DNA of 63,720 nucleotides, the filler included, from Folioceros fuciformis (lineage: Eukaryota): NCBI GenBank assembly GCA_049999805.1. It is 7 parts of 7 records of this genome, joined end to end, with 100 filler letters (N's around TTAATTAATTAA, not from the genome) between each part and the next. Parts side by side here need not be neighbours in the genome. Positions count along the whole stretch, not along the records: positions 1 to 20,964 come from JBNGIO010001023.1; 6 more parts are not named here. One strand, 5' to 3'. Of this stretch, positions 548 to 41,718 are shown piece by piece. The notes beneath the pieces are model-generated. The model did no database searches, had not been told where the DNA came from, and was given only the letters and a program-made list of their open reading frames with translations. The stretch's first letter is position 1, and each line of letters starts with the position of its first letter. The position numbers and the translations under genes are program-made.

Positions 548-3500
548 ATGGCCACAATGAATTCCTCCCCAACGGTCGCATCACAGGTTTGTGCTGCTGC
601 ATGACGTTGAAATTCTGTGCAGTCGGTCGCTGTCCTGCGGGAGTGGACGGGAGAGTGAAGGAGGGTGTGGCGTTTGCGGCATGTTAGGGGATGGAGCAGC
701 TGGTGAAACACTTCGTCGCTCCTCTGTTGCCATGGTTTGACTCTTGTGATGCGTCCGAATTTGCAGCAGGATAGTGGGGACCGCACTGGGTACTGGAGAG
801 CATTCGGAAGCGGGAGTCCGCTTTACGGGGATGTCAATGGCTTGGCCTCGCTCGGGAAGCTTCCCAGTGGAGAGATCTCTTCGTCCGGGGACGAGCTTGC
901 TATGAAAGTATGTCTTGACAACACCCTTACCTAGATGCTAGACGTGCACAACACTTTGTACCATGTATCTCTAATGCGTAATGTGCATCGTGATGCCTTG
1001 CAGGTCAGGAAGCCCTACACTATCACCAAACAGAGAGAAAGATGGACGGAGGAAGAGCACACAAAGTTCCTGGAGGCTCTAAAGCTGTACGGCCGCGCAT
1101 GGCGTCGGATAGAAGGTCAGCACCGTGGTCATCATTTGGCGCGGTCCTGGAATGAGTGTTTGGAGTCAAACCTCTGGCCCCCCCTTGCATTGTGTTGGAG
1201 CCTTACTTGAAAATGTCCTCCTCGGTTCGCAGAGCACATCGGCACCAAGACTGCAGTGCAGATCCGAAGCCATGCCCAGAAATTCTTCTCAAAGGTCTTT
1301 ACTTTGTGCAGTTCTTGTGTGGGCCATTCTTGTCAAGCGTCTGTACCTCATGTGGTCTGGTCTGCAAATCTTGTCCCCCCACCCCTCTTCCCAGTAGTCA
1401 CGCCAGATGTTGGTGAGCTCGAGGATCTGAGTGGCTGTCAACCAAGCCGTCTTGAACTCGCTTGGGAGGCTTGCAACTCGTCTTGTGCTTAACGTCTTCA
1501 TGTTATTCCTCTGCAGCTGGAGAGGGAGGCTACAGCTGCTGGCGGGGTGGTGGCTGGGGTGTCTCAGGATATAGACATCCCACCACCGCGTCCAAAACGG
1601 AAACCAAGTCATCCCTACCCGAGGAAAGCTGGAGGTAGTCTCTCCAACAGCCCTTCGGTGGCTGACGAGGATAACTCTCATGCTGGCGCGGGATCCCCTG
1701 GCAAGCCAGGAATCCCAGCAGTTGCAAACCATGGAGATGGGTTAATGAAGGTACGCTCCCGGGCAGTCCGGTCTACAAGTCCTCTAATTTCCGCAACTAC
1801 CTCTCTCTCTTTCTGTTCGTACGGTGTCTCACGATCGCGTCTGGCATGCAGCCTGCGGCATTTTCACCGTATGGGCTGAAGCCACCACTTCTGGAGATAC
1901 CCAGCTCTGCTTCCCAGCCGACAGTGTCACCAGCGAGTCTGAAATTGTTTGGACAAACGGTCGTGGTCCCAACAGCTCACAAAACGCTTCTTCCTGCTTC
2001 TAATGACTTGCAGGTCGGCCCACCATCAGGTCCAGGAGTTTCAGAGGGAGCTTGTGAGACACTCGAGGAGTCCTTGCAGGGAGTGGAAAGGAAAGCCGGA
2101 GAGGGAGCTGGAACTAGAAGGCCACCTTCAGGTTCCAGCGGTGAACTCTCCACAACAGGCACTTCAGAAATTAGCGTTCTGGAGTCTGGCATCAGTGCTC
2201 TGGAAGGTGCGAGCAACTCCTCTGCAGCTGAGCAAGTATGCCACAGAACAGGTCACAAGCCATCAGCAGGCAGGGAGCTTGAACCATCCTCCCAGGGCCA
2301 GTCCCGAAGGAATGAAGAAGCTATGCAGCAGTCTCCTCCAACCCACAGGTTTGCACAGTCCGGGGAGGGACCCTCGTTCGATTACTCTCAGTATCGTCAA
2401 GGCACCGCGACGGTGGCTCATCATCTGGCAGCTGCTTTAAGTGCAGGGATGCACCTCCACAACTTGACAGAGAGGCCGCCTTTCTCTCTCATCGACTTCC
2501 ACCCTGCAAGATTCATGGGGTTCCCTACCCACCCAGGGACACCTCAGCACCCTGCATTTGGGAACCTGGAAAGTCTAGCCAGGATCGCGGGAATTGCTCC
2601 ATGGCCGGCCGGAGCCTCTGATGCTCCAGCGTTTACTTCAGGGATGTGGCCAGCACTCATCCCAGCCGCGGCTGCAGCAGGAGCAGGAGTGGCCTTGCCC
2701 TTAGGAGTCGCTCTTCCAGGTGGCATCCCGAGACTGAGGCCTGCAGGGGACGGATCAGGTAATCATGATGATGCCGGCACTGCAGCAGCAGTAGCCGCAG
2801 CCACAATAGCAGCTGCCTCAGCCTGGTGGGCTCTCCAGGGCAGTGTGCCTTCAGGTGTAGTCCATCCCTCCGTGGCTGCTATGTACAGTCCAGGTGCGGC
2901 AGCTGCTGCGGCGGCGGCGGCAGGGGCAGCTGCTGCCATGGCCAGTGCTGCCGAAGCCGGAGTGATGCCACCCTGCCCCCCTCCTCTTCCTGCTAACAGG
3001 ACTCCACCAAAACAAGAGCCTGAGGCGGAGGATGAGCAGCAGGTGGGCTCCAACAACGACAGCGACGAGGGCGTCCCAGACGAAGCCCCATCCCGGAAGT
3101 GCAGTGCTGCCAAACGTGCAGAACGGGCTTCCAGGATGAAAGAGCAGAAGGCTCGCCGAGTGAGCCTCAGTGGCCCTGCAGCATGTACAGATTCTTCTCC
3201 GTCGGGCTGGGGCACCAGCCCGAGACTGAGCTATGCGGGGAGCTACAGCGAGAGCAGCGCTTTCCCTGGAGCCCTCCTTCTGGGCGACTCAAACCGAGGT
3301 AAGCCCAGATCGTGCAAACCTTCCATGGTGCAGAAGGACGGCGAAAACAAGCGGGCAGGCCCGTGCAGCGCCAACGGCGAGGAAGGAAGGAAGCGGGCCA
3401 GGGTGAGATCCGTAAGTGGGTCCAACACCCCTCCCAACGAGGAACGAAACAACAGGGACGTGGAGAAGAGTGGGGACGAGGGGCCATGCCAACCTTCCTC

Positions 3501-4371
3501 CTCCGGAAGCGATGGCAGCGGTGCCGGACGGGACGGCGGCAACCGCAGCTCGGATTCTTCTGGCTGCGGGAACGGGAACGAGCAGGGGAACGGAGGAGGG
3601 TCTGGCTCCTGTGACGGTGGCTCTTCCGACGGCGAAGGCCCTCTGGCCAGGGAAGAAGGCAGGGGAAGCACTTCACCTGATGATGGAGACAATGCCGTAC
3701 AGAGCGAGCACGTCGGGAACGGTGGGAAGCCATCATCCCCTTCCCAAGAAGCAGATGTGGGACCCGTCCTCTCTGGAGGAGATGCTGAAGTCAATAAAAC
3801 CCCGGAACAGCAATCTGTGTCCCCGCGTACTAGTACCCATCGAAACTGGCTCTCGGAGGAGACACGGCAGCAGACGCAGGCAGAAGATCCTGCTGAGCCC
3901 ACCATGCCACCACAGAAGCATGGTACTCCTCAAGAAGAAGACACTGCCAATGAGGAGGTGCTGGAAGGAGATGCAGAGCAAAGGGGAAGCGTGCCCAACA
4001 TTGGAGCCGAGCGAGAAGAAGAGGAAAGCTGTTCTGCCCAGAAGGAAGGCGAGGGTCCAGGAGCAGCTGCAGGAACAGGTGCCGGGTTTGGGAACAGATG
4101 TATAGACTCAGACGCTGAGGCTCATCTCCAGCGGCTGTCCATGTTCCGAACATGTCCGCCCACCTTGTCCACGGCTTCCAGCAGCGGGAGTGCTTGGTTC
4201 AGTGGAGTGGGATTTGTACCATACCAGCGCAACTCCATGGAGGCGAGTGGGAGCGGGGTGGACAGCCCTGGCAGCAAGCATCCCCGCTCCGAGGATGCCT
4301 GCAACTTCGAAGGTGAGTCGTGGAAGGAAAAGCGGGCTTGCACCAGGCAGGAAGCAGCCGTGCGAGCGTGA
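548..4371 (+). CDS. LHY: CCA1/LHY-type single-MYB (SHAQKF class) circadian clock transcription factor, 6 exons
   Basis: Exons 548-586, 770-907, 1004-1115, 1233-1294, 1517-1750 and 1852-4371 join in frame through GT-AG introns. Product has [91 protein letters not shown] and C-terminal GVGFVPYQR, hallmarks of the CCA1/LHY clade. Confidence 0.93.
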
Positions 4372-6139
4372 ATAACAACTCCAGTCAGCTGCTGGCCGCA
4401 GCCTGGTCGGGCCTGGCCTGGCCTCCCCTTCCTGTAGAGACCAGATTCCCTAGGGCAGAGCAGATTCTTTGGCGATTTGTACATTAGCATTTGCAAGCAT
4501 CAGGCCTAGATTGAGTGACCCCCACGGTAGTCGTCTCGTGGATTTCTCCTCTCCTCTCCCTTCCCCTCGTCCAGTGCTGTTAGCCTCGTAGAAATAGCAT
4601 GTGTAGATCGGCAGGCCATCAAGCATGACGTTAAAGTTTTCCCCCCACGGCTTTGTCTAGAACTCGAGGCTGAAACCCTGCTCGCCGTGCATCCGTAGCT
4701 TTCCGACTCCCACACCGCGTGGAGCCATTGCTACGGCAGGCTCATCCTCACGCGCCTCGTCCACAGCATGGTTTTTCCCCACACCCGTCTTCCACAGCTT
4801 GTTCATCCTCACGCTTTCAGGACCAATCTTCTACCTAAATTCTACAGTTGTAAGCGTCATATATTGTTCATTTTACGGTACATACTTCATGTGGATGAGA
4901 GATTGTATCGCTTGTATATTGACTACTTGTTTGATGTAGTTAAACCTGTTAAAGTTCGAGGGCTCTCTCCTTTGTTCATATATTATTGATTCCTTAACTT
5001 GCTCTTACACTCAATGTAGTTCATGAATACGCGCTTCTGGCACCTGCAGTTCAGGCTGGCGGGTGCTGCGTATCCTACCTTCGTGCTGCTTCCCCAAACT
5101 GCTGCTGTGTCAATCGAGTGTTTGTACTTCTGTGCGAGGCAACACGCCGACAAGCTTCTTGCTTCCTGTTCTTGGACTGGACTACCTGCTATGCTGTGCT
5201 CGAAAACTGCTCTTGAAGCTCCACAGACGGACAGATCTGTACCCGAGCAATCACCTCATGGAAGAAGCACGCGTAACGCACCCTAACCTTGAACCAGGCT
5301 ACGTCTTGGAAGAGCAGTCTGAGAGAAGACACCACCAGTACAGTATTGTTTCATCTCAGCCTCCGGCTGCATCATCAGTTTAATGCCTGTTCAACGAGAT
5401 TTATGGCAGATGTCATGAACGAGCTAGCATCAGGCAGCATTCTCAAGCGTGCATCTTGTTTCCCCCATAAGTAACAGCTCAGAACCTAACCTAGAGCACC
5501 GCCACCTCCTCCTATGGCTGCCTTGCAAGGACGCAGATGAAGACCAGTAGTGCATCTGATTTGCATCTGGTTGCTTCTAGGCTGCTGCAACGAAGATGTC
5601 CTTCACCCGTCCCTCTCAAGAGATGCTACAGCCGCCTGACCAGATCTGGCGGGGCAACCGTGCTGGGTGCGTGAGTTCTTTCCTGGCCTCTCCTCAATAT
5701 GTGTCTGGGCAAGCTCTTTGTTGACGTTTTCTACCCCGATGACAGAAGCCCCAATTCAACATAACGCAGTGAAAGAAGGAATCTGGACCGATCACTTGCA
5801 GTGGCGGGACAGTAGGTCCAAGAAGGTAACGTATGTCTTCTGCTGAGGATGCCCTGCTCTGCTGCGCTCTTTCAGTCAAGTGCCTCCCTCAGGTCCTCCC
5901 AACAGTCGCTCACATGATGAAATTCTTATGTACAGCAGCACTGCAGAGGCGGTTATCTGGACTGACTGTTCCTCCACCTCTCTGGGTTTCCATGGAGATG
6001 CGAATCCAGCAGGGCCTCGGGATGCAGGCAGAAATTCCGTGCTCTTTGAGTTTGATGCTCGAGGTGTATCTGAAAGGTCTTGGTCTGGCAGCCTGTTCTC
6101 ACCTGCTGAATTTGTGGCTGTGGCACCGTTCCTCGCTGA

Positions 6140-9100
6140 TTGCGGGATTATTGCTCTCGGGTGTGTAGGGTGGCAAGTAACAAAGGGACAATTCTGGGTG
6201 GGGAAGATCAGAAGAGCAGAGCATGGATTCATGTGCCTGCGTACGAGCCTGCTGTGGTACTTGACCTGATGGAGTGCCAAGGATGCTATGTATCTGAAGG
6301 CATGTTGTACAGAGTCCTCAAAGAGTATTCTGTGAAGAAAGACCTCAGAGGAGGCAGGCGCGTCCACGCCATCTCCGTGAGAAATGGATATGAGACGAAT
6401 GTGTTTCTGGCCAACCACCTCATCAGGATGTATGGCTCGCATGGCAGGTTGGTGGAAGCACGTGAGGTCTTTAGAAAACTTCCTTCACCAAACCCGCACG
6501 TCTGGGCTTCTATCATCGCAGCACACACAGGGAATGGCCAAGCCGAGAAGGGTATTCACCTGTATTGGGAGTTGCGAGAATCATCGAGTGTGAAAGCAAA
6601 TGAGTATGTGTTTGTGGCAGCTCTGAAAGCTTGTGCCATCATTGGAGATCTCGAGTCCGGGAGGCAGGTCCATGCTGATATTATGGACTCAGAATACAGC
6701 TTCAATGTGTTCGTTGGGAACAGTCTGGTAGACATGTATGCAAGGAGTGGCAGTTTGGATGATGCTCATACTGTGTTTGACAGACTGCCAGCTAGAAATG
6801 TTGTAACATGGACTGCACTCATGTCAGGATATTCCCACCACGGGCTCTGTCAGAAAGCCCTCGATCTCTTCGAGAGCATGGAGGACGATGGTATGACTTT
6901 AGCAAACGCTGTCACGTTTGTGTGTCTCCTGAAGGCATGTTCTACCATTGGAGCCATACATAAGGGCAAGCAGTTGCACCAGAAAATTAAGGAACGAGGG
7001 CTTGAAACAGATTTGGTTGTTGGGAATGCACTAGTTGATATGTATGCAAAATGTGGGGATTTAGTGGATGCTCGTGGGGTGTTTGAAAACATGCAAAGGA
7101 GAGATGTGGTGTCATGGAACACCTTGATTGCGGGGCATCTGCAACAAGGGTTTGGCAAGGAGGCTCTGAAACTGTATTCTGTGATGCCAAAGGATGGTGT
7201 CACTGCACCCAATGAGGTCACATTTGTCAGCCTTCTCAAGGCGTGTGCGAGTATACCATGTCTGCCCATGGGCAAGAAATTACATGCAGAAATATTGTTG
7301 CGTGGACTAGAATCAGACATTGCAGTGGGCACTACCTTGGTGGACATGTATGCCAAGTGCGGGAGTCTAGACAATGCTTGCCAGGTTTTTGACAGGCTGC
7401 CAATGAAAGATGTCGTCACATGGACGGCACTGATTGCGGGATATGCTGAGCAGGGGTTTGCTCACGAGGCTCTCAAGCTATATGCGCGTATGCGAGCGAA
7501 TCATGTGACTCTGAATAAGGTTACATTTGTGTGCCTTTTGAAGGCATGTGCTAGCGTTGGAGCTATGCTGGAGGGCAAGAATATTCACGCAGAAGTCCAG
7601 AAACAGGGATTCGATGGAAATGTAACTGTGGGCAATGCCTTGATCGACTTTTATGCAAAATGTGGAGATCTGGAGAGTGCTCGAGGAGTGTTTGACAAGC
7701 TGCAGGCCAGAGATACTATGACCTTGAATATCATGCTTGCAGGATATGCTCGACATGGTCAGGGTCAGGAAGCCCTCACGCTATATGCTAGCATGGACAA
7801 GGATGGAATTGTTATGGCAGATTCTGCAACTTTCACAAGCCTACTCTCATCGTGTGCCTGCATTGGGTCTTTCTGGCAGGGCGCACGCATCCATGCTCAA
7901 ATTCGGAAACGGGGGTTACATGTAGATCCGGGTGTTGCCAATGCCTTGATAGATATGTATGCAAAATGTGGAAGCTTGGGGGGTGCGCGTAGTGTCTTTG
8001 ACAGGCTGCCAGCCAAAGACCTAGTGACGTGGACAGCCATGATTTCAGGGTATGTTGCACATGGTTTTGGTGAGGAAGCTCTCAATCTGTATGGAAGCAT
8101 GTTGGAGGAGGGCCTGTGTCCAGTAGATAGTGTCATGCTTGCAAGCCTGCTCAAAGGATGTGCCAGCATCAAAGCCGCACATGAAGGGAAGCTGCTTCAC
8201 TCTCACATTTGCGAAAGGGGACAGGAAGTAGACGTGTTGCTTGGAAATGCTCTTGTGGACATGTACGCTAAGTGTGGCAGCTTAGAAGACGCTCACACTG
8301 TCTTCGACGGACTGCAGGTAAAAAATGCTGCAACATGGACGTCCCTCATTGCAGGTTATGCTCAGCATGGGCTTGGTGAAGAAGCTATCAAGCTTTATGC
8401 GAGCATGCAGCAATATGGCCTGAGTGAACCAGATAGGGTGACCTTTGTTAACATTCTGAAGGCCTGTGGGAGCACAGGAGCCATCCGTTTGGGTAGGGAG
8501 GTGCACGCCGAGATTCAGAAAAGGGGACTGGAATCAGACGTTTCTGTGGGGAGCACACTGGTGGACATGTATGCAAAGTGTGGCAGTCTAGACGAAGCTC
8601 GTGAAGTGTTTGAAAGACTGCCTACGAAAAATGTTGTTACTTGGAATGCTTTGATTAGTGGCTTCGGCCAGCATAATGAGTGCTCCAAGGCCATACAATG
8701 TTTTCAGCAAATGCAGCAGCAAGGAATTGAGCCTGACAGTGCCACCTTCACGTGTCTCCTGGTGGCATGCAGTCACGTGGGCCTGGTGACTGAGGGGCAG
8801 CAACACTTCAAGCAGATTGCTGAGTACGGAATCGAGCCCTCTTTGGAACACTACAACTGCATGGTTGATCTTCTTGGGCGGTCAGGGAACCTGACGGAAG
8901 CAGAGAACACATTGCGGAGGAGCCCTTTTCAGAATGATACTGTGGGTTGGAAATCTTTGTTGAGTGCCTGCAAGATACACGGTGATGTCCAGCGTGGGCG
9001 TCGATGTTTCGACCGCCTGGCTGAGTTGGAACCCCAACAAGCGGCCGGTTATGCATTAATGTCCAACATCTATGCAGATGCTGGAATGTGGGAAGATGTC

Positions 9101-9526
9101 CACAAAATTGACTGGTTGCGGAGGTCTGCCGGTGCTCAGAAGAGGCCTGCAATGGCATCAATTGAAGTTGATAACAAAGTGCATGATTTCATGGTAGGGG
9201 ACCAGCGGGACGATACATTGTCAAAGCTTAGGAGCCTAAATTTGTTGGTGGAGCAAGACCTCGGCAATGGGTTGGGTTCAGTAGCTGGCAACGTGAAGGA
9301 AGATGCTCTCTGTGGACATGCTGAAAAGTTGGCCTTGGCATTTGGTCTCCTCAACACTGCAGAAGGCACAACCCTGCGAGTTACCAAGAACCTTAGAATG
9401 TGCAACGATTGCCACATTAGCACCAAAACTCTTTCCAAGGTCGAGGGCCGTGAAATCATCGTTAGAGATGCACACCGAGTTCATCACTTCAGCGACGGGT
9501 TTTGTTCATGTGGAGACGCCCAGTAA
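6140..9526 (+). CDS. PLS-class PPR protein with DYW:KP-type deaminase-like domain; true start uncertain
   Basis: Long uninterrupted P-L-S repeat array (LVDMYAKCGSL..A..VF, VVTWTALI.GY, VTFV.LLKAC), E domains, then KRPAMASIEVDNKVHDF, CGHAEKLALAFGLL, VTKNLRMCNDCH and HHFSDGFCSCGDAQ. The ORF begins at TTG and the first ATG is at 6269; a possible acceptor near 6168 suggests an upstream exon. Confidence 0.93.
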   Translation: MRDYCSRVCRVASNKGTILGGEDQKSRAWIHVPAYEPAVVLDLMECQGCYVSEGMLYRVLKEYSVKKDLRGGRRVHAISVRNGYETNVFLANHLIRMYGSHGRLVEAREVFRKLPSPNPHVWASIIAAHTGNGQAEKGIHLYWELRESSSVKANEYVFVAALKACAIIGDLESGRQVHADIMDSEYSFNVFVGNSLVDMYARSGSLDDAHTVFDRLPARNVVTWTALMSGYSHHGLCQKALDLFESMEDDGMTLANAVTFVCLLKACSTIGAIHKGKQLHQKIKERGLETDLVVGNALVDMYAKCGDLVDARGVFENMQRRDVVSWNTLIAGHLQQGFGKEALKLYSVMPKDGVTAPNEVTFVSLLKACASIPCLPMGKKLHAEILLRGLESDIAVGTTLVDMYAKCGSLDNACQVFDRLPMKDVVTWTALIAGYAEQGFAHEALKLYARMRANHVTLNKVTFVCLLKACASVGAMLEGKNIHAEVQKQGFDGNVTVGNALIDFYAKCGDLESARGVFDKLQARDTMTLNIMLAGYARHGQGQEALTLYASMDKDGIVMADSATFTSLLSSCACIGSFWQGARIHAQIRKRGLHVDPGVANALIDMYAKCGSLGGARSVFDRLPAKDLVTWTAMISGYVAHGFGEEALNLYGSMLEEGLCPVDSVMLASLLKGCASIKAAHEGKLLHSHICERGQEVDVLLGNALVDMYAKCGSLEDAHTVFDGLQVKNAATWTSLIAGYAQHGLGEEAIKLYASMQQYGLSEPDRVTFVNILKACGSTGAIRLGREVHAEIQKRGLESDVSVGSTLVDMYAKCGSLDEAREVFERLPTKNVVTWNALISGFGQHNECSKAIQCFQQMQQQGIEPDSATFTCLLVACSHVGLVTEGQQHFKQIAEYGIEPSLEHYNCMVDLLGRSGNLTEAENTLRRSPFQNDTVGWKSLLSACKIHGDVQRGRRCFDRLAELEPQQAAGYALMSNIYADAGMWEDVHKIDWLRRSAGAQKRPAMASIEVDNKVHDFMVGDQRDDTLSKLRSLNLLVEQDLGNGLGSVAGNVKEDALCGHAEKLALAFGLLNTAEGTTLRVTKNLRMCNDCHISTKTLSKVEGREIIVRDAHRVHHFSDGFCSCGDAQ

Positions 9527-9700
9527 GCACCACAATAGAGGCGTGAAAATATTGTGTTATGTATGTAGATGTGACGTGAGGATATATGTACTCAAGAGAA
9601 GTATCCAAGCCAAATTGTTCACCAATCGAGCCTTTTGCACAAGATCCAGAAACAAGATCCTTCCCATAAGTGAACACAAGTCCCATTGTGTCTCTGGATC

Positions 9701-9738
9701 TTGAGCCAGATGTCGGACGTTGAGCCAGATGTCGGACG
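9701..9738. repeat. Direct duplication of 19 bp (TTGAGCCAGATGTCGGACG x2)
   Basis: Read directly from the sequence. Confidence 0.85.
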
Positions 9739-10023
9739 CACGCAGTGATACAAAGTTTTTCCCGAGCAGATGGAGCAAAGGCTAGTTTTTTTGCTGTGCG
9801 GAGAAGGAGCAATATAATAGCTCTCACCGAACCATAGTTTTCACGATGATGTAACGTAATCGAATTCCCATTTCATGCGGAATGATATGCCTCCAGGACC
9901 ATGTTGTATCTCTGGAGTTTGATAGAGTGCGATGGTGATGACCATTATTTGGCTCCGAGGAGAATGTGTCCCAGAAAGAAGCAGCCAGAGGTGCTGTTCA
10001 GGGTTCTTTTCTGCAATCCATCT

Positions 10024-11890
10024 CTAAGTTGCCAGCCTGGTAGACTTCATCATCTCAATGGCAGAAACGACCAGGGTTGTGATGGACCTTACGCTACAGC
10101 GGACAGCGATTATGGTTGTTTCAAAAAACAAACGCGGTAACTCTTCGTGACTGCGGCTCACATCCGTTAGGAAGAGGGCAACTTGGAGAGCTCCAGAGCG
10201 CAAGGTGGGAGCGATTGTTGACACGTCAAACCGGAGGTCCATGTAAGTCTGAGAACTCGGGTTCGTAGCTACCAGTACAACGCTGTCACCTACAGTATTT
10301 CTGGCGATGACCACAAAACTGTGCTCGAACTTGGGCACAAAGATCTCGAACCCAGGCCGAATCCATCGGCTAAAATGCATCACAGCGAAGAACTGCTTCT
10401 TCACCTGCACCGTGACAGGCAAGCTCTCATAGTTGAAGGGAGCTTGAATAAGGCCCCAAACCCCTCCCCCAGGCTCTTCTAAAGCTTGCCAGTAACACCA
10501 GGCAGAGGGTTGAAGCTCATTCAGATCCAAAGTCAGATGCCTAGCTACCCCCAGAGCTACCTCCATTTCATCCCCTCTCCAGTTCAACGGTCCGTATTCA
10601 GACATCCAAAGCTTCTTACCAAGTTTGCGTACGAGCTCTCTCACCTGAAAAACCGTTGTCAATTGCCTGACATTTTAAACAAAGATGCGTGAGGCCTCTT
10701 CAAGCACTAAAAAGTTACAGACCTGGGTGCGTTTTGCCTCGTCCTCTCTCAGCACATCGTTGATGTAAGTGTGAACATTTACTTGTTGTATGGTCGCTAG
10801 TGCCTCCTCTCCTATAGTTTCAAGTACACTGACAGTGTTCTTCGTCCATGCATCGAATCCTGATAGCTTGGTTGACAGGCCCTTTTCTCTCAAAAGATGC
10901 TGCACCTGAAGAGTTACCTGAACCACACACAGCGATCTTCATAAACCCACAAAGAACAGGGACCAGAAGCAATGCACTGTGACATCGTTTCTCACCTTCT
11001 CAAGTGCCTTCACTGAAAAGTTGCAGCCCTCCTGACTCCGCTTCTTTCGATCCACGTACCACCAGCCCTCTACTGGCTCGTTGAAAGGTGCTAAGGAGTT
11101 GAACTCGATCCCCCATGCGTCTCGATAGTGCTTGACCACTTCAGTTAAGTAATCTCCGAATGCCCCGTAATAAAGAGGATTCAGATTCTCTTGCCCCCAC
11201 CACTTGTTCCCTGTGGCAGACCTCAAAGATGAGCAAGAGCCCATGGGCTTCCAACAGCCATCAACCCAGCAATCCCAAATAAGATGGTTTCCACGGTTCA
11301 GACATGTGAACATCGACGACGCCTTGTAGCATCTAGCGTAAGCTTACGCACCTGTCACTGAACCACTGTAGGTCATCCAATGTGGAGGAGAGTTGGAAAA
11401 TGCCTCTACGACATCCACTCCTCGCTTCACCGCTCCCAGCAGTACCTTCCTCTGGCGCTCATCCGCCGACCAGTTGAAAGGCCCCCCTGGTCTGTCCTGG
11501 AAGCCAGGGACATCACCGAAAGGCCGCAAGTTTACATCAAACGACCGATGCGCACCTCCACCTATGTTGTATCGTGCTATGTTAAGACCCAGACCCTTCT
11601 TAGCATCAAACAGGAGATCGAGTATGTAGTCCATATCATCTTGGGGCAAACCCCCTGCAAAGTTTGCCCACCTGTACATCGGGCTCGATCACCAACCGTT
11701 GAATACAGGTAATAGCACAACGAATCAAAGCACAACAAAACCATACCAGCAAAGAGAAGTACCCCAACCCTCCCACTTCACGCCTGTGCTAGGAGAAACC
11801 TCCATCACCACGTCGATGAAGTCCTCCTGCACCTCAACCATGGGTCCATCACAATCGGTGTCACGTCTCCGCATACCAAGTTCCGCTAAC
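10024..11890 (-). CDS. Glycoside hydrolase family 30, endo-beta-1,6-galactanase-like; 5' end unresolved
   Basis: Exons ~11890-11747, 11671-11352, 11210-10996, 10905-10723 and 10644-10024 splice in frame. Motifs WEGWGTSLCWWAN, GLGLNIARYNIGGG, EAFSNSPPHWMT.SG, PFNEP (acid/base Glu), QVNVHTY, LWMSEYG (nucleophile Glu), AWCYWQ and HFSRWIRPG. Confidence 0.85.
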
Positions 11891-12992
11891 CTGTAGAAGC
11901 CTGCCAGCTCATAATGCAGACAGAGCAAAAACCTTGAGAGGAACCGGAGCCCAGAACTGCATCCAGGTCGTCACAACTGACATTCCAGATCTTGGTTTCG
12001 ACAATAGCACTAGGGTGTCTTCCAAGGCCCTTCTCACAGATGTCTGACTATCACCTCGAATTGCCCGCACGTTCTGCACTGTGGCTTGCTCCCCACCAGA
12101 ATTCCCATCACAGCGTCCCAGAGACACATGACGGATTGGACAGGTTGGACAAAACGTGCGCGACCCTACAAGGTACGGCATCCTCAGCTGCCAAGGACGA
12201 AACGACTTGTTGTCGACAACGCAGAGTGCCAAGCTTGGGTGACATTCAAAGTGCATCTCTCTTTCGTTGTTTGCACCTTGGCCTGGACCGCTCAATTTCC
12301 GCATCCGAGCACCCACTTCATAGCCGAGTCAGTTAAACTGCTGATCTATGCAAGGAACCAGCGAAGCGGATGCAACGGTGTCCTCGGATTGCCTCAATCA
12401 GAACTCGCCATGTCGGTCTTTCCTGCCTGAATGTGACCCGGAAACAAGTGGTCTCGTTTCTGCACGCCGCGTGTGAATCCCGTCGACAGAATAGGCCATG
12501 CGTTCCCGAGCCTCAGCCTCGGAATTGATAATGGTTCGGGAGCCGGCTCGTCACCAGCCTCGGTACCTGGGCTGAGAGGCAGTATTCTCTGAGAAGCATG
12601 CCAAAGAGGCTGGGGTTTGTTGCTTGCCGTGTGGTCAAGGCTCCCGGCTCTCTGAACCTCGAATGTGGCGGCTGGGCGTGACCGGATCGTGCGCTCGAGT
12701 GGCGAAATTCGTACAGGATTGAACAGCTTTCACACGGCTCGCTTTCGACTTGGGACTTGCACCGCAGCCTCAGGAATTGGATCCAGAAGTGGAGCAGCGG
12801 GAATTCAAGCTGGATTCTTTTGGTGAAGCTGTTTTGTGGCACTATCTGATTGCACGCGGGGGCTAGCTGAAGGAATGCGACCTGGCAAGATCCGGGCTGT
12901 GCAAGTAGCTGAAATCGGCAGAGGTTGGATTAGAGGTGAAGGTTACGGAGTAGTTGCAGCTCTGGGTTGAGAGGACTCTAAGGCAAGAAGAC

Positions 12993-14448
12993 ATGGATTG
13001 GAGCAATGTGACGTTGGATGAGCTGGTGGATGCGCTGCAAGAGGTGGAGTGGTCGTCACCTCCCCGGCCCTTAGCAGAGTTTTTCGCTAAGTTCACGGTG
13101 CCGAAGTCTCGATCCAAATGGGAGGGGCGGCTCAAGTGTAACTTCTATTAGTAAGTGGATGCCGCATGTTTCTGGCGAGTGGTATTTCGCATATCCTGCT
13201 GATCCGGTTGTCGCCATGGGTTGCTGAGTTTGACGAGCTAGCGGAGTTGTTGAACTCCCAGACTGTAGGTGAGAGCGAAGTAATCTCGGATTGAGGATGC
13301 AAAACCCTAGATACTCGGACGGATATGGATAGGTAGTTGGTTATGTTTGCTTGACGATTTGGAGATGATTTTCATGGAGCTTGTGGGTCTTGCAGTTACC
13401 GAACAAATTACTTCATCTTAATCTCCTTGATTCTTGGTGAGCTTTCTGTCAAGTTGCCTCACGTACAGGGCTTGAAAGAGTAGGATGTCATGGAAATACT
13501 GTATAAGCTGTTATGTCCTATTGTCACTTGTAGATTTGTTTCTCAAGGCAAGCATGATGTGTTGTCCTTGAAGTTAATTATGTTCGGGTTGCAGGAATTG
13601 GTTTCGTGCGGAATCCTCTGGCACTTTTAGCTGTCTTTGTTGCTGGCCTCAGTGTCGCGTGCCTCAATGACAGGTGCGTACTAACCTGCTTAGATTTCTG
13701 AAAAGCCCTGATTCGTTCAGCCAGCAGTATGCCGGAAGTTTCTTCCTCAATGATTGTGTATGGTTTTTGCAGCTTTGCCGAGTCTCTAAGTGAAAAGCTT
13801 ACACGGGGTGTAAGGAGAATATCACCTCCATTGGCAGCGAAATTAAGGCCACCTGTAACGTAAGCACCGCACAGTTGGAAGCGGAGTGGTTCTCTGAATT
13901 AAAGCTGCGAACCAGTTCTGCAAACTGTGAGTTGCGAACAGCTGGGTCCCCTGCTGCCGTGTTCTGATACTTATTGACTCAACTGCAGGCCAGGAGTTCG
14001 GCGTCGACCCTCTAAAGGGATAGTTTACATCTGTGGGAAAGACCGCCGTATTATTGTAGGTGGCCTAACTTCTGGTAAGCTGATGGGCCCATGTGAGTTC
14101 AGGATTCGTCTGTCAGTTGCAATTTTAGTGCCATGCAGTACCAATTGGTGCTTCTATCGCTCGCTGAAAATTTGGCACTCTGCAGTGAGCATTGTGGTAT
14201 GGTTCCTGACTGGAGCGTACATCACTGTTCTAGGAGCAGCATCCTTCGGCATCGTCTGTGAGCACTAATTTCAGGCTGTCTCGCTTATCGTTTGTCACAT
14301 TCCTTTGCCGGCGTCGTTCTAATTTGTGCTCCCTCTCGTGGCAGTGTCTGGTCTCCACGCAAGTTTCCGCACTCCAAATCTGAAGGCCAGACTCAATTCT
14401 GTGCGTGAAGAGTTCAAAGCAGTGTGGAGGGGGTATAGTGATGCATAG
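12993..14448 (+). CDS. PRA1.A: PRA1 family protein (prenylated Rab acceptor), clade A, multi-exon
   Basis: Starts MDWSNVTLDELVDALQEVEWSSPPRPLAEFFAKFTVPKSRSKWEGRLKCNFYY|YRTNYF and ends HASFRTPNLKARLNSVREEFKAVWRGYSDA*; GT-AG introns. Confidence 0.9.
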
Positions 14449-14741
14449 TTAGAATTGTCGCATGTAATCTTAGAAGGGAAATGATGCCTGTACTGGACCT
14501 ATCCTTGCCGCCGAGGTTCAGCAGTACCGTGTCCGGGAGGCCATCGTCCAATAGGTTGGGATGAGGGTTTACGATAGAAACATTTTTGGTTGTCCTCGAG
14601 TACGGCTCTGTGGTCAGACGTATTCATAACCAGTTCTGTTTGTGCATTCATATTGGAACACTTGGCCCTGTTCCCAGTGCGGCCTGACGCTTGGGGGTTC
14701 TATGTACCATTCTCATTACTGAACGGATTTGACTACTGAAT

Positions 14742-15643
14742 TTACTCGTGCATGTAGATGCGAGAGCCAATATCTGTAACAAGCCAGTCGAAGCCATCCA
14801 ACAAGCCATGTCCAGTCATGGCGCTGCATCCTAATATATGCCAGTGTCGGGTGTTATCCATCAACTCCAGCCTCAGAACCTGCAAAACAAACTCAAGATT
14901 TTGGTGCTTACTCAAAAGCAGAACTAGCTGCCCCCCGTTTTACCTGTCGGTTAGTAAGCTTCTCATCACGTCCTACCTTGGCAATCTCCTCCACTGTCAA
15001 TGCCCCGTCGATATCTTGCTTGTTCGCCAGAATAAGTAGGGAGGCTCCTGTAAGTCTCTGCACATATTGCACGCAAGCTTGCACGCTTACTAACAACTCC
15101 TCGTTTGATGTTTGCATGAGAGATCGAATGTGGAAAAACAACCTCCTCCTTGAGCAGAGAATGGAGCTCATTTCGGCAGTCATCCAGCCTCCTGAGGTCC
15201 GAACTATCCACCACCCACACCATCCCATCCGTTTGCTCGTAGTAGTTCCTCCAGTAGGCCCGCAGAGTCTTCTGCCCCCCGACATCCCAGATATTGAGCT
15301 TGTAGCTGCAGTTTGAAAATTCCCCACCCAATTACTCTCTGCCGCATTTTATTCAAGATGCCCGGAAGGTGCGGAATCCTCACTTTTTGTACTGCATGGT
15401 CTTGATGTTGAATCCCAGGGTCGGGCTGATGCTGCTTGCGTCCTCGCCGTTGATCCTTTTGACGATCGTGGTCTTGCCCGCGTTGTCCAAACCCCTGCGT
15501 CAGGATCGCATTGTGAGCTTCGGAGCTTGACGAGGCTGGCTCAGCCCCAGGCACAGGAGGATCCTGGCACTTGCTTACACCATGAGAACGCGCATCTCCT
15601 TTTCCTTCTTCTTCACCTTCCTGATGATCGTGAGCAGCCCCAT
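14742..15643 (-). CDS. ARL2: ADP-ribosylation factor-like GTPase 2 (TITAN5 homologue), 5 exons
   Basis: [61 protein letters not shown], ending [10 protein letters not shown]; splice phases are consistent. Confidence 0.95.
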
Positions 15644-15798
15644 TTGATCCTAACTAGCCCGCCCACGCTAACACGTCACAACAGGATTGCCAGCCTTAGC
15701 GGCAAGCATTGCTCGTTTCAGAGCTGTCGGGTGCGACACTTGGAAGCTCCAGCAATGGCAGAGGGCCCAACTGAAAGAAACTGCCTGTAGAATCGCGA

Positions 15799-15807
15799 TT
15801 AGGGTTT
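15799..15807 (-). promoter_or_regulatory. Telo-box (AAACCCTAA) about 160 bp upstream of ARL2
   Basis: TTAGGGTTT on the + strand in the divergent ARL2/PPR intergenic region; function inferred only. Confidence 0.4.
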
Positions 15808-15933: not shown

Positions 15934-16717
15934 GTCATGCAACTTAGCTGATCTTGTGCTGTCAGAATGCAGGCTGCGGGAGGGGCCGGCACCTCTTAGA
16001 TTCCAGCTGCTTCATGGCCAAGCGTGTGACAGGGGGAAGGAGGCGGGCTTGTCGTGGTCAAGAGCTCTTGCAATGGCCTTGGGCCGGTTTGACTGTTCTG
16101 GTAAACAGATGCAATCAGAGGGTGTGTCTTGTTGCTTTTGCGAAAGGTCGGCCATTTTCTGCTCTTGCGACTTCAACAGTAGAGGACGGTATGTCTGCCG
16201 TGCATTCCAGATGAGCAGTCATTCTGCACGGATTGTCAATTCAGACGGAAGATCTGACTGTCTGTTGGTGTTTAGTCTCAGGACATCAGCCTTGCCCCAA
16301 GGGTGAAATGCGGTGGCACAAGTACTTTATGAATCCTCATCTGTGGTGGGACAACAGGGCAGCAAAGGTACTTTGCACGTCGCCTGGCACTACTCAGTGG
16401 TTCCAATGAATTGGTGCCTTTGTCACATTTTTGTTTGGTTGTTGCAGAAGAGCTCAACGGATCCCGACTTCCAGCACAGGACTACCGGGGAAGCTCTGTG
16501 GGTCGAAAGTCAATGGACACCCACTTGGGTACGTCCGAAGTTAGCCAAAGTCTGGCTCAATGGTTGGTCCTTAGCTCCTGGACTGGCCGCTTTCCGAGCA
16601 GAGACTGATGTAGGCGCACAATTCCCATCTAGTAGTGCCTCTTTGAAGTCTCCAAGGTATGCAGGCAGGGCTGAACTGGTCACACACAACCTGGTCCGGT
16701 TGGAAGGTGTCTAATTC

Positions 16718-19408
16718 TTGTTTGCAGTATCATCAATGGGATCTGAAAGGCTTGGGTTAAGTATGTCGCTGATTGAGCAGACATTTCAATGTAGGGATGC
16801 TAAGGAGTTCAGGAGACTTTGTGAAGAGGGGTTCTTGGGGCAGGCGCTTGAGAAGTTAGAGGATTTAGATGTCAAGAGCTTTGGGGATCCCATCAGCCTC
16901 TACAGCTCTATTATTAAGGAGTGTTGCAAGCGTCGTGCCCTGGTGGAAGGAAAGCGGTTGTTTGAACTTATTCTCAGCAGTGATTATGCTTCAAGCGTTA
17001 CTCTGGGTAATTGCATGATAGAAATGTTTGTCAAGTGTGCAAGTCTTAATGATGCACGCAAAGTATTCGACCGGTTACCAAGGAGAGAGGTATCGTCTTG
17101 GAACACATTGCTGTTGGGGTATGTCGACAATGAACTTGGTGAAGAGGCTCTTGAATTCTTTGAGGAGATGCTAGAGAATGGACTGCCACCAAATAGACAC
17201 ACCTTTGTGGGTGTGCTTCGAGCATGTATCGGTTTGTCAGCTGTAACTGAAGGCACGCTCGTTCATGCTCTTATTCTTGATGCTGGTTTGGAAGCAGATG
17301 CCGCTGTAGGGAAAGCCCTTGTCCATATGTATTTGAAGTTGGGAAATTGGAGAAGTGCTCATGAAGTTTTTGGTAAGCTATCACAGCGGGACGTAGTTAC
17401 CTATAATGCTATGATTCAAGGATGCATGCAAGCCAGTCACAGTGAGGATGCATTTGTTCTTCTTGGGCAAATGGTACAAGAGGGTTTGGACCCAGATGGT
17501 GTGACATTTACGAACATGTTGAAAGGATGTGCAAACCTGGCAGCTCTGGAGCGAGGCAAATTGGTTCATGCCCTGATAATGAGAAGCGGGGTACAGGTCG
17601 ACAAACTCGTGGGGACAACCTTAGTTGACATGTATTCAAAATGCAGAGAAATGGAGGATGCATTTGAAGTTTTCAGCAACTTGCCCACTCTTGATGTTGT
17701 GGCATGGAATTCCCTTATAGCAGGTTATGTGCGGAATGGAGATGCGACTCGTCCGTTATCGCTTTTCGAGAAAATGCGCCAAGAAGGGATCAATCCAAAC
17801 AGAATTACGTACCTCAGTGTTCTTAAAGCATTCAACTGTTCCAAGCATCTGAAGGAAGCTAAGGAGATTCATGCGGACGTGGTGCGAAATGGATTAGATA
17901 CAGATGTAGCTCTGGGGAGTTCTGTCGTTGACATGTTTGTACGATGTGGGAGTATGAGAGATGCTCGCCAAGTTTTCCAGAATCTACCTGAACGGAATGT
18001 AGCGGCGTGGAATAGTTTAATTTGTGGTTATTCCCAGGCCGGACTGGCAGAGGAGGCTCTGATATTGATCAAGGAAATGCTCGCTGCGGGTCAGAAGTGG
18101 GACAAAGTAGCCTTCGGTGTTACCCTGAACGCTTGTTCCACTTTGGAGGCTTTGGAGTATGGCAGGCTGGTGCATCATCTCGTTAGGACTGAAAGTGACT
18201 GTGAGGCCGATTCGTTTGTCGGCTCCACACTAGTGGATATGTACATGAGCTGTGGAAGTGTGGCAAATGCTTGTCACGTGTTTGAACGGTTACTAGTGCG
18301 AGATGTTGTGTCATGGGGTACAATGTTGGCAGGGTACGTAGAGTTTGGGAATAGTGAGACTGCCCTGAGAGCATTTGAGGAGATGCAGCAAGAGGGTGTG
18401 AATCCTGATCTGGTCACATTTGTCAGCGTTATAAAAGCTTGTGCCACTTTAGCAGATTTGAAGCAGGGAAAACGCGTTCACCTTCTGGCCATCAAAAGAG
18501 GCTACCAAAACGACACTATACTGGGGAACAGCTTGATAGATATGTATTCTAAATGTGGTTGCCTTGAAACTGCACGTGAATTGTTCACTGAGCTACCTGA
18601 CAAAAGTTTAGTCTCCTGGAATGCAATGCTCACAGGATATGCCCAGCACGGACAAGGTGTGGAAGCTCTCAACCTGTTCAGAGAGATGCAACACGAGCAA
18701 GTGATACCCGACTCAGTGACGTTTGTAGCCGTGCTCTCTGCATGCAGCCACGCTGGCCTGGTGGACGAAGGCCTTCAGTACTTCAAATCCATGACTGAGG
18801 ACTATGACCTTGCACCGTCCATGCAGCACTACGCAGGCATTGTGGACCTTTTGAGTCGTGCTGGAAGGCTGGATGTTGCAGAGGCAACTGTGGGGGCAAT
18901 GCCTTTCGAGCCTGATGCGGTGATTTGGCTGACCTTGCTCGGAGCGTGCCGAAAATACTGCAACGTCGAGGTGGGAAGGCGTGCTTTTGAGCATGTTATG
19001 CGCTTGGAACCCGGAAATGCTGCTGCATATATGCTGCTTGTACAACTTCTCTCTGAACAAAATAGGTGGGCCGAGGTTGCAGAGATCAAGAGACGGATGA
19101 GGGACGCCGGTGTGGAGAAGAAGCAGCCCGGGTGTAGTTGGATTGAGGCCAATAACGAGATGCATACTTTTGTCTGTGATGACATCTGCCACCCCGATAG
19201 GAAGCAAATCTATGCTGCGTTGGAGCGTATCCGCAAAATGGTGAGAATTAAAAGATACGACATCGCCTTATTTACTGTTCTGGAAGATGACGCAAATTCC
19301 ACAGGGACGTCAACCATGACTACCTCAACGCAGCAGGCAGGATTCAAGACAAACACAAATCATATGATTGTACCCAAATCCACCAGGCGGCAAACGTCCT
19401 ATATCTGA
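16718..19408 (+). CDS. PLS-class PPR protein of E+ type (PG box present, deaminase domain absent)
   Basis: PLS repeats, E domains and KKQPGCSWIEANNEMHTFV...HPDRKQIY, then unrelated sequence with no HxE/CxxC. The start is uncertain because the ORF begins at TTG. Confidence 0.92.
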   Translation: MFAVSSMGSERLGLSMSLIEQTFQCRDAKEFRRLCEEGFLGQALEKLEDLDVKSFGDPISLYSSIIKECCKRRALVEGKRLFELILSSDYASSVTLGNCMIEMFVKCASLNDARKVFDRLPRREVSSWNTLLLGYVDNELGEEALEFFEEMLENGLPPNRHTFVGVLRACIGLSAVTEGTLVHALILDAGLEADAAVGKALVHMYLKLGNWRSAHEVFGKLSQRDVVTYNAMIQGCMQASHSEDAFVLLGQMVQEGLDPDGVTFTNMLKGCANLAALERGKLVHALIMRSGVQVDKLVGTTLVDMYSKCREMEDAFEVFSNLPTLDVVAWNSLIAGYVRNGDATRPLSLFEKMRQEGINPNRITYLSVLKAFNCSKHLKEAKEIHADVVRNGLDTDVALGSSVVDMFVRCGSMRDARQVFQNLPERNVAAWNSLICGYSQAGLAEEALILIKEMLAAGQKWDKVAFGVTLNACSTLEALEYGRLVHHLVRTESDCEADSFVGSTLVDMYMSCGSVANACHVFERLLVRDVVSWGTMLAGYVEFGNSETALRAFEEMQQEGVNPDLVTFVSVIKACATLADLKQGKRVHLLAIKRGYQNDTILGNSLIDMYSKCGCLETARELFTELPDKSLVSWNAMLTGYAQHGQGVEALNLFREMQHEQVIPDSVTFVAVLSACSHAGLVDEGLQYFKSMTEDYDLAPSMQHYAGIVDLLSRAGRLDVAEATVGAMPFEPDAVIWLTLLGACRKYCNVEVGRRAFEHVMRLEPGNAAAYMLLVQLLSEQNRWAEVAEIKRRMRDAGVEKKQPGCSWIEANNEMHTFVCDDICHPDRKQIYAALERIRKMVRIKRYDIALFTVLEDDANSTGTSTMTTSTQQAGFKTNTNHMIVPKSTRRQTSYI

Positions 19409-19518: not shown

Positions 19519-20964
19519 CTAGGCTGCTGCGTGATTACAAGCAAGTGCCGGCTCGTCCAAAACCTTAGTGGCCGCCAGGACATGTTTCTCCTCCCACTCT
19601 TGGACCATGGCCTTGGTCAGCACAGGGTAATTTCCGGAGAAACAGGCATCACAGAATGTGGGAGCTTCATCCCCCAGCATGGCCCTCAACCTCCTCAAAG
19701 GCAGGAAAGCCAAAGAGTCGGCTTCCACTTCCTTCCTGGTGTCCTCAATGTTCAGCCTGAAGGAGATGAGCTCTTCACGACTGGGCGTATCCACTCCATA
19801 GTAACAAGACCCTATTATGGGAGGACTAGCTATTCGCATGTGGACCTCAGTCGCACCCGCCTCTCGGATCAGCCTCACTATCTTGGAAGAGGTGGTTCCC
19901 CGGACAATGGAATCATCCACAACCACCACCCTCTTCCCCTTAAGCACAGCCTGCACAGGAGCCAGCTTTAACTTAACCCCGAAGTCCCGAATCTTCTGCG
20001 ACGGCTCAATGAAGGTCCGTCCAACATAGTGCGACCTAATAAGCCCCTGTTGGAATGGCACCTTAACCTTAGAGGCATACCCCAGAGCTGCAACGACCCC
20101 GGAATCAGGAACAGCGATGACAACATCACACTCCACAGGAGCCTCTTCAGCGAGAATCTCCCCGAACGTGTACCTGGACTGGTACACAGACCGGCCGAAC
20201 ACTATGGAGTTGGGCATCGCGAAGTAGATATGTTCGAAGATGCAGGCCTTCCTCTCTCTCCGGGGCATGAGACAAAGGGAACTGATCCCATCCTTATCTA
20301 CCACCACAACTTCTCCGGGATTCACCTCCCTCTCATACGTGGCTTCAATCAGGTCAAGGGCGCACGTCTCGGACGCGAAGACGACAGCCCCGTTGTCCCG
20401 ACGCCCCATAACGAGCGGGCGGAAGCCATAGGGATCCCGCACTGCCACGAGCTTGTCCTCCGTGAGGAAGACGAGGGAATAGGCCCCCTCCAGCTGCTCG
20501 CAAGCGTCTACGAGCCTGGCGATGAAAGGTCGTGCTTTCGTGGTGGCGATTAGGTGCAGCACAACCTCGGTGTCGGAGGAGGTATTGAAGATGGACCCAT
20601 TCTCCTCCAGCATCGCCCGCAGCTCCTTGTAGTTAACAATGTTCCCGTTGTGAGCCACAGCCAGCTGCCCGAACCTGTACCCCGCCATGAAAGGCTGCAC
20701 GTTCTTTACCACGGACCCCCCCGCCGTGGCGTACCTGCAGTGCCCGATGGCCGCGGTTCCCGGGAGCTTTGCGAGGCGGGATTGGTTGAACACCTCCGAC
20801 ACCAGACCCATGCCCGTCAACGACTGCAGGACCCCGTCGTGCGACGCCACCATGCCCGCCCCTTCCTGCCCCCGGTGCTGCAGTGTGTGCAGCGCCAGGA
20901 AGCACAGCCTGCTGGCCTCCGGTTCCCCAAAGATCCCCACCACCCCGCATTCCTCCCGCACCCT
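19519..20964 (-). CDS. ASE: Amidophosphoribosyltransferase (PurF/ATase); transit peptide region lost in gap
   Basis: REECGVVG (N-terminal catalytic Cys after processing), LQHRGQE, HNGN, CIFEHIYF, PRPP loop VVVVDDSIVRGTTS, FCDACFSG; no introns in the visible part. Confidence 0.96.
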   Translation of the reverse strand, partial: RVREECGVVGIFGEPEASRLCFLALHTLQHRGQEGAGMVASHDGVLQSLTGMGLVSEVFNQSRLAKLPGTAAIGHCRYATAGGSVVKNVQPFMAGYRFGQLAVAHNGNIVNYKELRAMLEENGSIFNTSSDTEVVLHLIATTKARPFIARLVDACEQLEGAYSLVFLTEDKLVAVRDPYGFRPLVMGRRDNGAVVFASETCALDLIEATYEREVNPGEVVVVDKDGISSLCLMPRRERKACIFEHIYFAMPNSIVFGRSVYQSRYTFGEILAEEAPVECDVVIAVPDSGVVAALGYASKVKVPFQQGLIRSHYVGRTFIEPSQKIRDFGVKLKLAPVQAVLKGKRVVVVDDSIVRGTTSSKIVRLIREAGATEVHMRIASPPIIGSCYYGVDTPSREELISFRLNIEDTRKEVEADSLAFLPLRRLRAMLGDEAPTFCDACFSGNYPVLTKAMVQEWEEKHVLAATKVLDEPALACNHAAA

Positions 20965-21064
20965 NNNNNNNNNNNNNNNNNNNNNNNNNNNNNNNNNNNN
21001 NNNNNNNNTTAATTAATTAANNNNNNNNNNNNNNNNNNNNNNNNNNNNNNNNNNNNNNNNNNNN
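20965..21064. other. Artificial gap spacer 1
   Basis: 44 N + TTAATTAATTAA (stops in all six frames) + 44 N, identical at six places in the window. Confidence 0.98.
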
Positions 21065-21066
21065 GT

Positions 21067-22215
21067 ACCGGGGGGCCTGCTCCTGGCGGGGGCCTGGGCC
21101 GGGATGGGAGGCCTGGCGGAGCTTTCCAGCCGCCGTATCCGAGCCACAGGGAAGTGCCGTATGTCTCCACTTCCATGCAGCTGGGTGTGTCGTCCAGCAG
21201 CTATTTGCAGGGCCCGGAGCAAGAGGAGAGCCAGGGACAGGCTCAGGGTGCCACGCAGGCTCAGGCCCAGGGCCCAGGCCAAGGCCAAGGTCAGAGCCAG
21301 GGCCAAAGCCAGGGCCAAGGCCAAGGCCAAGGAGGCCAGAGAGATAGTCAGGCGGACGCTGACGGCCGATCTGAGCAAAGCACCATACCGCACGCCAACC
21401 TCGCTTATTCCTCTTACGACCGCCGCCCCGAGTCCAGCAGCTACGGGGGCCCGGCTGACAGTAGCAAGGCGGGAAGCGGAAGTGCTCTGAAGAAAGCCAG
21501 GAAGATGACTGACGCGGACTCTGAGGATGGGGATTCTGGTGGCGGTCCGGAGAATAGCAATGAGGAGCCCAATGCGCGTACTTTGAAACGTCCCAGACTG
21601 GTGTGGACTCCTCAGCTGCACAAGCGCTTTGTGGACGCCGTGGGCCACCTGGGTATCAAGAATGCTGTCCCAAAGAATATCATGCAGCTGATGAATGTTG
21701 AAGGGCTGACACGGGAGAACGTGGCGAGTCATTTGCAGAAGTATAGATTGTATCTCAAGCGTATGTCGGGTGTCCCTACGGAGGGTCCCGGCGCCAACGA
21801 TCAGCTTTTTGCCTCCACTCCCCTGCCGCCCAATCTGGGTTCCCCTCTCTTTATGGCTAACCACAGAGAAGATGTGCCCCCTCCAGGATTCCCTCCCGGT
21901 ATTGGGATGCCCACCCACATGGGATTGGGCCCGACTTTGAGCATGGGGCCCTATGGTAGCTATGAGCCTCATCATTTTGGAGGGTTTGCCAGAGTGCCTA
22001 CCCAAAGATCACCCAGTGGAGATCACAGTCATAGTCACTACAGCCTTAGCCAGAATCACCACCTGAACCATAGCCACAATCATGCTCAGAGTTCCCTTCA
22101 CAACCAAAGCCACCGAGAGCATAGAGACCACAGAGAATTTGTAGTAGATAGCCACAGCCAGCCTAGTTCCCCACCTCGGCGTATCCTCACGCTCTTCCCT
22201 ACCAGCAGTCATTAG
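21067..22215 (+). CDS. LUX: LUX ARRHYTHMO/PCL1-like GARP MYB transcription factor, 5'-truncated by gap
   Basis: [64 protein letters not shown] followed by DQLFASTP; the frame is open back to the gap; contains a (QG/QS)n tract. Confidence 0.93.
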
Positions 22216-41490: not shown

Positions 41491-41718
41491 TCTTGGGTTC
41501 CCTGCTTCTCGTGTATTTAAATACGCTGATAAAATTCCATTTATCCTTTCCAGTCTACCGTACTGTTATTCAACAAAAATGGCCTGAACTGTACATACAA
41601 GTCCAACCGTTGCAGCCATCCAACAACTGTTTGACCTCAAAAAAGATTTGATGCAAAAATTTTATCACTTAAAAAAAACAATTGGTCTATGTGGAATATG
41701 CAATGCCACGTACAGTAC

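Follow-up and report, generated by a model that had tools for sequence, protein, structure and literature searches.

The closest described counterparts of the protein examined here are the hornwort KP proteins of the DRH and DXX types (Gerke 2020 and Gutmann 2020, via PMC9478123 and PMC7611903), with which it shares a PLS-E1-E2-DYW layout, a KPAxA-type box and the loss of xHP. DRH and GRP have been described as hornwort KP variants (PMC9478123), and the published ends of KP domains are DRH, DXX or GRP (Takenaka 2021, Supplementary Note 6, PMC7611903). Activity has been reported for designed proteins. Of seven KP designs, three showed activity, namely, two built on GRP proteins, which edited U-to-C only, and one built on fern proteins; KP1, based mainly on hornwort DRH proteins, was not among the active ones (PMC9478123). 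The fern-based KP6 edits both ways in HEK293T cells and C-to-U in vitro (PMC11332814, PMC9478123). A first-pass annotation of the present locus had stated that KP designs show heterologous U-to-C activity, which thus holds for two GRP-based designs and one fern design but not for KP1, and for KP6 only alongside C-to-U editing. As of PMC11845758, no natural KP protein had demonstrated activity. Neither natural-KP activity nor a shortened KP finger was found in literature titles and abstract openings, a search whose coverage took in few subscription papers. Since the U-to-C chemistry and the activity of native DYW:KP proteins are unsettled (PMC11845758, PMC12548569), any native KP gene found intact could serve as a test case; the present gene alone adds little, because hornworts carry many such genes and its end is of a described type.

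The gene, here called P0001, was located in a window of 63,720 nucleotides of Folioceros fuciformis DNA (GenBank assembly GCA_049999805.1), the whole stretch that was analysed. Its frame ran uninterrupted for 1128 codons from stop to stop, with the first in-frame ATG at 6269, and the DYW domain at 9140-9526 formed the final 128 codons. The following features, all on the plus strand, were recognized:

6140..9526, plus strand: uninterrupted reading frame P0001, with Pfam PPR, E motif and DYW matches
6296..8938, plus strand: PLS array of 26 repeats, L-S-(P-L-S)x7-P2-L2-S2, with repeats cut and code residues read
8939..9139, plus strand: E1 (8939-9040) and E2 (9041-9139) motifs, Pfam E_motif E 9e-15
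9140..9160, plus strand: KP-type box K-R-P-A-M-A-S replacing the PG box, with the leading Lys and Ala3/Ala5 retained and the K of "KP" changed to R
9242..9292, plus strand: shortened Gly-rich gating beta-finger region without GHVP, from alignment to relatives
9317..9415, plus strand: catalytic zinc site, with HAE at 9317-9325, Lys88 at 9386-9388, Met92 and CxxC at 9401-9412
9413..9523, plus strand: second zinc site (His97, His120, Cys127, Cys129) and terminal DAQ (9515-9523, DXX type)

The arrangement is the PLS-class PPR-DYW layout (P-L-S)n-P2-L2-S2-E1-E2-DYW. The motifs on which the first-pass annotation had relied were all recovered: KRPAMASIEV in place of the PG box from 9140, HAEK at 9317, CNDC at 9401, a short segment before the active site, and the end CSCGDAQ at 9503-9523, followed by the stop TAA at 9524-9526. 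The domain matched Pfam DYW_deaminase far beyond chance (E 1.1e-33) and also matched the solved structures PDB 9kfx (E 8.8e-35), OTP86 7o4e (E 6.7e-27) and DYW1 7w86; an Rfam search gave 0 matches. From 8851 onward, the contigs of two DNA runs and one spliced run showed 0 differences and 0 gaps, so an assembly error or an unspliced intron behind the DAQ end or the short segment was ruled out. The two DNA runs represent one sample, possibly the window's own source, and the spliced run belongs to another study.

For classification, a quick IQ-TREE tree was computed with 190 DYW domains out of 206 proteins, the remaining proteins not spanning the domain. P0001 fell inside an 83-row KP clade (SH-aLRT 99), apart from PG, and within it into a 39-row group (support 84) together with DRH- and GRP-ending proteins and apart from the named fern proteins; 4 members of this group were Nothoceros aenigmaticus proteins, with names available for 4 of the 10 proteins checked. 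As DRH and GRP are described hornwort variants, this placement makes a hornwort source likely. Our own profiles, built from 39 hornwort-clade KP, 55 other KP and 90 PG domains that had been retrieved with this query and not taken from published HMMs, scored the P0001 domain at 197, 171 and 143.5 bits, respectively. Both results upheld the earlier assignment to DYW:KP. An Atlas search with P0001 returned only generic DYW/E clusters, and a 50%-representative search added PG domains and KP domains of the fern type and nothing closer to P0001.

The residues of the domain were compared with those of 39 close relatives, namely, 38 proteins from the clade plus P0016. P0001 has the HAE, the CxxC and the second zinc site of KP domains, which carry HAE or HCE where PG domains have HSE, and it has in common with the hornwort DRH and DXX proteins, which belong to the same clade, the HAE, Met92, the first terminal Asp and Lys101. 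It differs from them in the pair RP, the DAQ end, a finger that is 5 to 6 residues shorter and lacks GHVP, and a position outside the DRH and GRP subclades. The "KP" pair, RP in P0001, has K in 33 of the 39 relatives and another residue in 6 (R in 1 of 39). In a 44-row tree computed without the finger and with 170 upstream residues added, P0001 was placed outside the tight DRH (98) and GRP (97) subclades, and its end branch measured 0.23 against a median of 0.26. It is also distinct from the GRP subgroup in retaining D131 and K101 and in lying outside the 4-row GRP clade. The DYW:PG deaminases OTP86 (7o4e) and the synthetic PPR-DYW protein (9kfx) share with it the core, two zinc sites, the active-site lysine and, by our own mapping with an offset of 2, 4 of the 5 DYW residues through which the 9KFX domain is anchored to its PPR tract. 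The fifth, a Phe, is Val in P0001 and in 37/39 relatives. P0001 lacks the PG box, has HAE instead of HSE, has 9 fewer residues before the zinc His and does not end in the DYW triplet. Compared by their described residues, the designs KP2 and KP3 (GRP-based) and KP6 (fern-based) have HAE, CxxC and Lys88 in common with P0001 (PMC9478123, PMC11845758, PMC11332814), which is natural, carries 26 repeats instead of 12 and, with D131 and K101 kept, is not of the GRP type. Judged by every testable sequence feature except finger length, P0001 is a member of the hornwort DYW:KP family. A distinct short-finger DXX subclade, which a domain-based FastTree analysis had suggested (12 rows, support 73), was lost when the finger was excluded and the 170 residues were added, and it is not claimed.

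The DAQ terminus had been put forward as one that was not recognized. Measured against the published KP ends, it is an ordinary DXX end. The 39 close relatives displayed 22 kinds of terminal triplet; 33 of these proteins ended in a triplet with D in first place, among them 12 in DRH, and another 4 ended in GRP. DAQ retains the terminal Asp along with Lys101, and in OTP86 the terminal Asp bonds to that Lys (PMC7611903). A second DAQ end was not found among 318 extracted domains, the nearest being DAH. Forms with short fingers or DAQ-like ends may already be on record in Gerke 2020, Gutmann 2020 or the accompanying supplements.

Canonical code pairs were present in 16 of the 17 P and S repeats of P0001. 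The pairs NN and AN specify C/U and A, respectively. The code used for the other pairs was TN/SN=A, TD=G and ND=U (PMC12733224), and the register was set with S2 at -4, following PMC13324415. Read in this way, the 26-repeat array would cover target RNA positions -29 to -4, with a predicted site from -28 to -4 of Y-a-n-Y-A-n-U-Y-n-G-A-n-U-U-n-U-G-n-Y-G-n-A-U-n-U. Because the repeat code is this clean, the expectation in the first-pass annotation that the long array gives a specific organellar target is plausible. In each of the three runs, several hundred short contigs of other loci also aligned to the repeats at 6308-8928 (607, 647 and 516); therefore, the PLS-PPR family in this genome is very large.

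The closest relative was P0002, an unnamed public protein of 1155 aa that is colinear with P0001 over 1099 aa and 56% identical. It had the top identity in all three homologue searches able to list it; in an array-only search, long unrelated PLS arrays dominated, and among the 120 entries listed P0002 ranked first by identity (55%). The code pairs of the two proteins were identical in 9 of 17 repeats (shuffle p 0.001), a number that did not exceed 5 for any of 16 other relatives examined, and 15/17 repeats specified the same base class (shuffle p 0.0001). P0002 keeps KP, a full GHVP finger within a 133-aa domain and a VDH end, where P0001 has RP, a short finger and DAQ. It would be either an ortholog or a close paralogue, with no supported node joining the two in the 44-row tree. 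The long clean code common to both proteins should ease target finding once combined with an organelle editome.

His65, Ala66, Glu67, Lys88, Met92, Cys93, Cys96, His97, His120 and Cys129 are all present in P0001 and in 39/39 relatives, and Cys127, also present, is found in 38/39. Lys88 corresponds to the K at His65+23. This lysine is essential for U-to-C editing and is proposed to form a crosslink with the uridine (PMC11845758, PMC11332814), and it is conserved in PG domains as well (PMC9478123, PMC11845758). HAE does not set the editing direction (PMC9478123). Seven positions in KP6 shift the direction, and single changes flip it (PMC11845758). At these positions, P0001 has the U-to-C-shifting residues A116 and V119 and the C-to-U-shifting residues G64 and V113; its residues at positions 6, 17 and 133 fit neither direction. 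All four of G64, V113, A116 and V119 are identical in 4/4 natural GRP-type relatives, and across the hornwort-clade relatives, G64 occurs in 39/39 and V113 in 38/39.

The domain had been described as intact. This was accurate for the catalytic and zinc residues, all of which are kept, but not for the gating finger, which is shortened and diverged. The short segment noted before the active site was confirmed: the zinc His lies 59 residues after the first Lys, compared with 68 in 80/90 PG domains and 64 to 65 in 28/39 hornwort-clade KP domains; the usual KP domain measures 132 to 133 aa. Three to four residues of the shortening are accounted for by the known KP loss of xHP (PMC7611903). The remaining 5 to 6 residues are missing from the gating beta-finger, where GHVP is also gone and where alignment to a DRH protein opened a 5-residue gap, and the helix part of the gating domain is conserved. 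Short fingers are not unique to P0001: 8 of the 39 relatives have 62 or fewer residues over the same interval, and intact catalytic cores accompany the short fingers of P0009, P0011, P0013, P0022, P0122, P0124, P0126 and P0136. From these alignments, the KP gating finger seems to have come repeatedly under relaxed constraint in the hornwort clade. Long insertions in the finger were seen in P0019 and P0021.

P0001 and P0002 are 78% identical across the core (60/77) and 70% across E1-E2; the array follows with 54%, and the finger drops to 18% (3/17). Because the finger is so much less identical than the core, constraint is judged to be relaxed locally in the P0001 finger and maintained in the core. 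Published effects of altering this region differ: removal of the whole beta-finger markedly lowered OTP86 editing (PMC7611903), and single alanine changes in the gating region left >90% activity in PG assays (PMC13324415). KP proteins have been proposed not to need strong autoinhibition (PMC7611903). It is conceivable, though doubtful, that P0001, as a hornwort KP protein of the DXX type, has lost most of its gating beta-finger yet goes on editing, which would make it a naturally "ungated" U-to-C enzyme. Were this so, reverse editing would do without an autoinhibitory gate, and P0001 together with the finger-bearing P0002, which has the same predicted site, would form a natural pair for a first test of native-KP activity and of the role of the gate. 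In any case, the shortened finger offers a natural way to examine whether KP enzymes require the gate.

The spliced run skipped nine GT-AG introns of adjacent genes, among the joints listed, that the DNA runs keep; it behaves as RNA, although its RNA label is a guess by the tool. Since this run also covers P0001, with further contigs at 6379-8159, the gene is likely transcribed. As a caveat on this point, the spliced-run contig over the DYW domain runs on into a convergent glycoside hydrolase gene. At 9526-10642, that contig joins the DYW domain to the glycoside hydrolase family 30 gene (minus strand, ~10024-11900), which suggests that the 3' ends of the two genes overlap.

The ATG at 6269 sits just ahead of the repeats and leaves no transit peptide. 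Upstream of it, a possible 5' extension was identified:

5537..5670, plus strand: candidate first coding exon, ATG plus 44 codons, with a GTGAGT donor at its end (inferred)
5671..6168, plus strand: candidate 498-nt intron, GT...AG, with an in-frame join to the main exon (inferred)

This exon is one of 20 one-intron 5' joins possible for P0001, and its donor is the only GT[AG]AGT within 4400-6170. Its 44 residues include 8 R/K and 1 D/E, plus an RCYS motif, a composition that we take to resemble a mitochondrial presequence cleaved at an R-3 site. On this basis, 5537-5670 is a candidate for encoding a mitochondrial-like presequence of P0001. No splice joint for the exon was seen among the joints listed (15 of 184). 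The candidate intron is 498 nt long, compared with 78 to 158 nt for introns in adjacent genes among the joints listed. Spliced-run depth was lower over 5707-6307, which is compatible with the candidate intron and was not counted as evidence.

Taken from its sequence, P0001 would most plausibly be a site-specific organellar U-to-C editing factor acting by the Lys88 route, and we regard this reading as reasonably probable. The protein would be nuclear-encoded and imported into an organelle, possibly the mitochondrion, by a presequence on a separate 5' exon. Its 26 repeats would bind one predicted RNA site at -28 to -4, and the uridine four bases downstream would be converted to cytidine. By the published KP model, Lys88 would attack uridine C4 at the zinc/Glu centre, giving a protein-RNA adduct and then cytidine, and the shortened finger would be tolerated since KP enzymes may need little autoinhibition. 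The decayed finger could also be read as a sign that P0001 binds RNA and has weak or no editing of its own, either lending specificity, as a scaffold, to a KP domain provided in trans or simply acting as an RNA-binding factor. The finger is 5 to 6 residues short and matches at 3/17 positions a closest relative that keeps GHVP; loss of the whole finger reduced OTP86 editing (PMC7611903), the DRH consensus design was inactive (PMC9478123), and trans-acting DYW and DYW:KP donors have been proposed for ferns (PMC12548569). We consider this unlikely, as the catalytic core is better conserved with P0002 than the PPR array is (78% versus 54%), the normal length of the end branch without the finger shows no decay in the remainder of the domain, and 8/39 relatives combine short fingers with intact cores.

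The direction of editing bears on a further reading, in which a P0001 of the KP clade edits C-to-U, or in both directions, at its site. The dual behavior of KP6 in HEK293T cells and its C-to-U editing in vitro (PMC11332814, PMC9478123) make such a factor imaginable, as do the single changes that flip direction and the G64 and V113 residues that favor C-to-U in KP6 (PMC11845758). These same two residues are nearly invariant in the relatives, however (39/39 and 38/39), and those relatives include the GRP type, on which the U-to-C-only designs were based; A116 and V119 of P0001 shift toward U-to-C, and in Anthoceros agrestis the numbers of full-length KP proteins track those of U-to-C sites (PMC12548569). 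C-to-U or dual editing thus appears rather improbable. It is more improbable again that P0001 arose recently as a copy lacking both organelle targeting and function and is turning into a pseudogene like other PPR remnants in the window. The missing transit peptide ahead of the repeats would fit such a copy, the degenerate first repeat of the relatives is eroded in P0001, and two other PPR genes of the window are broken. Against decay stand 3.4 kb without a stop or frameshift, a canonical code conserved with a 56%-identical relative, a strong donor leading from a presequence-like exon in frame, and the coverage of P0001 by the spliced run.

Other PPR genes and remnants were observed in the window. 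A second intact PLS gene at 16715-19408 (plus strand), 897 codons from stop to stop, has E motifs and a PG box with an HP motif; it stops before the zinc site, is therefore of the E+ type, and would need a DYW domain in trans. The E+ type is enriched in hornworts (PMC13386178). At 39234-37058 (minus strand) lies a frameshifted DYW:KP pseudogene with a full GHVP finger, which is probably a dead GRP-type copy, because it matches a GRP-type protein at 69% identity over 42 aa and has Glu at the Lys101 position. In a broken, frameshifted PLS-PPR gene at 39847-41500 (plus strand), a stop follows a PG-like box and the DYW remnant has decayed. The window consists of separate pieces divided by six N spacers (20965-21064, 31928-32027, 41719-41818, 49602-49701, 57768-57867 and 61065-61164), so genes past 20964 need not adjoin P0001.

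Ordinary plant genes were recognized at 13400-15800, 19519-20964, 21064-22212, 51238-53310, 57819-58895, 61166-62185 and 63022-63603. They comprise an intron-rich gene and an Arf-family GTPase arranged head to tail, an amidophosphoribosyltransferase-like gene and a Myb gene, as well as genes for ORC5, aspartyl protease, SRA-RING and root-cap-domain proteins. At position 2924, the window has G, and one of the DNA runs as well as the spliced run gave contigs with C. This position falls in a long frame at 1675-4371 that has no Pfam match, and the difference is either an allele or an assembly error.
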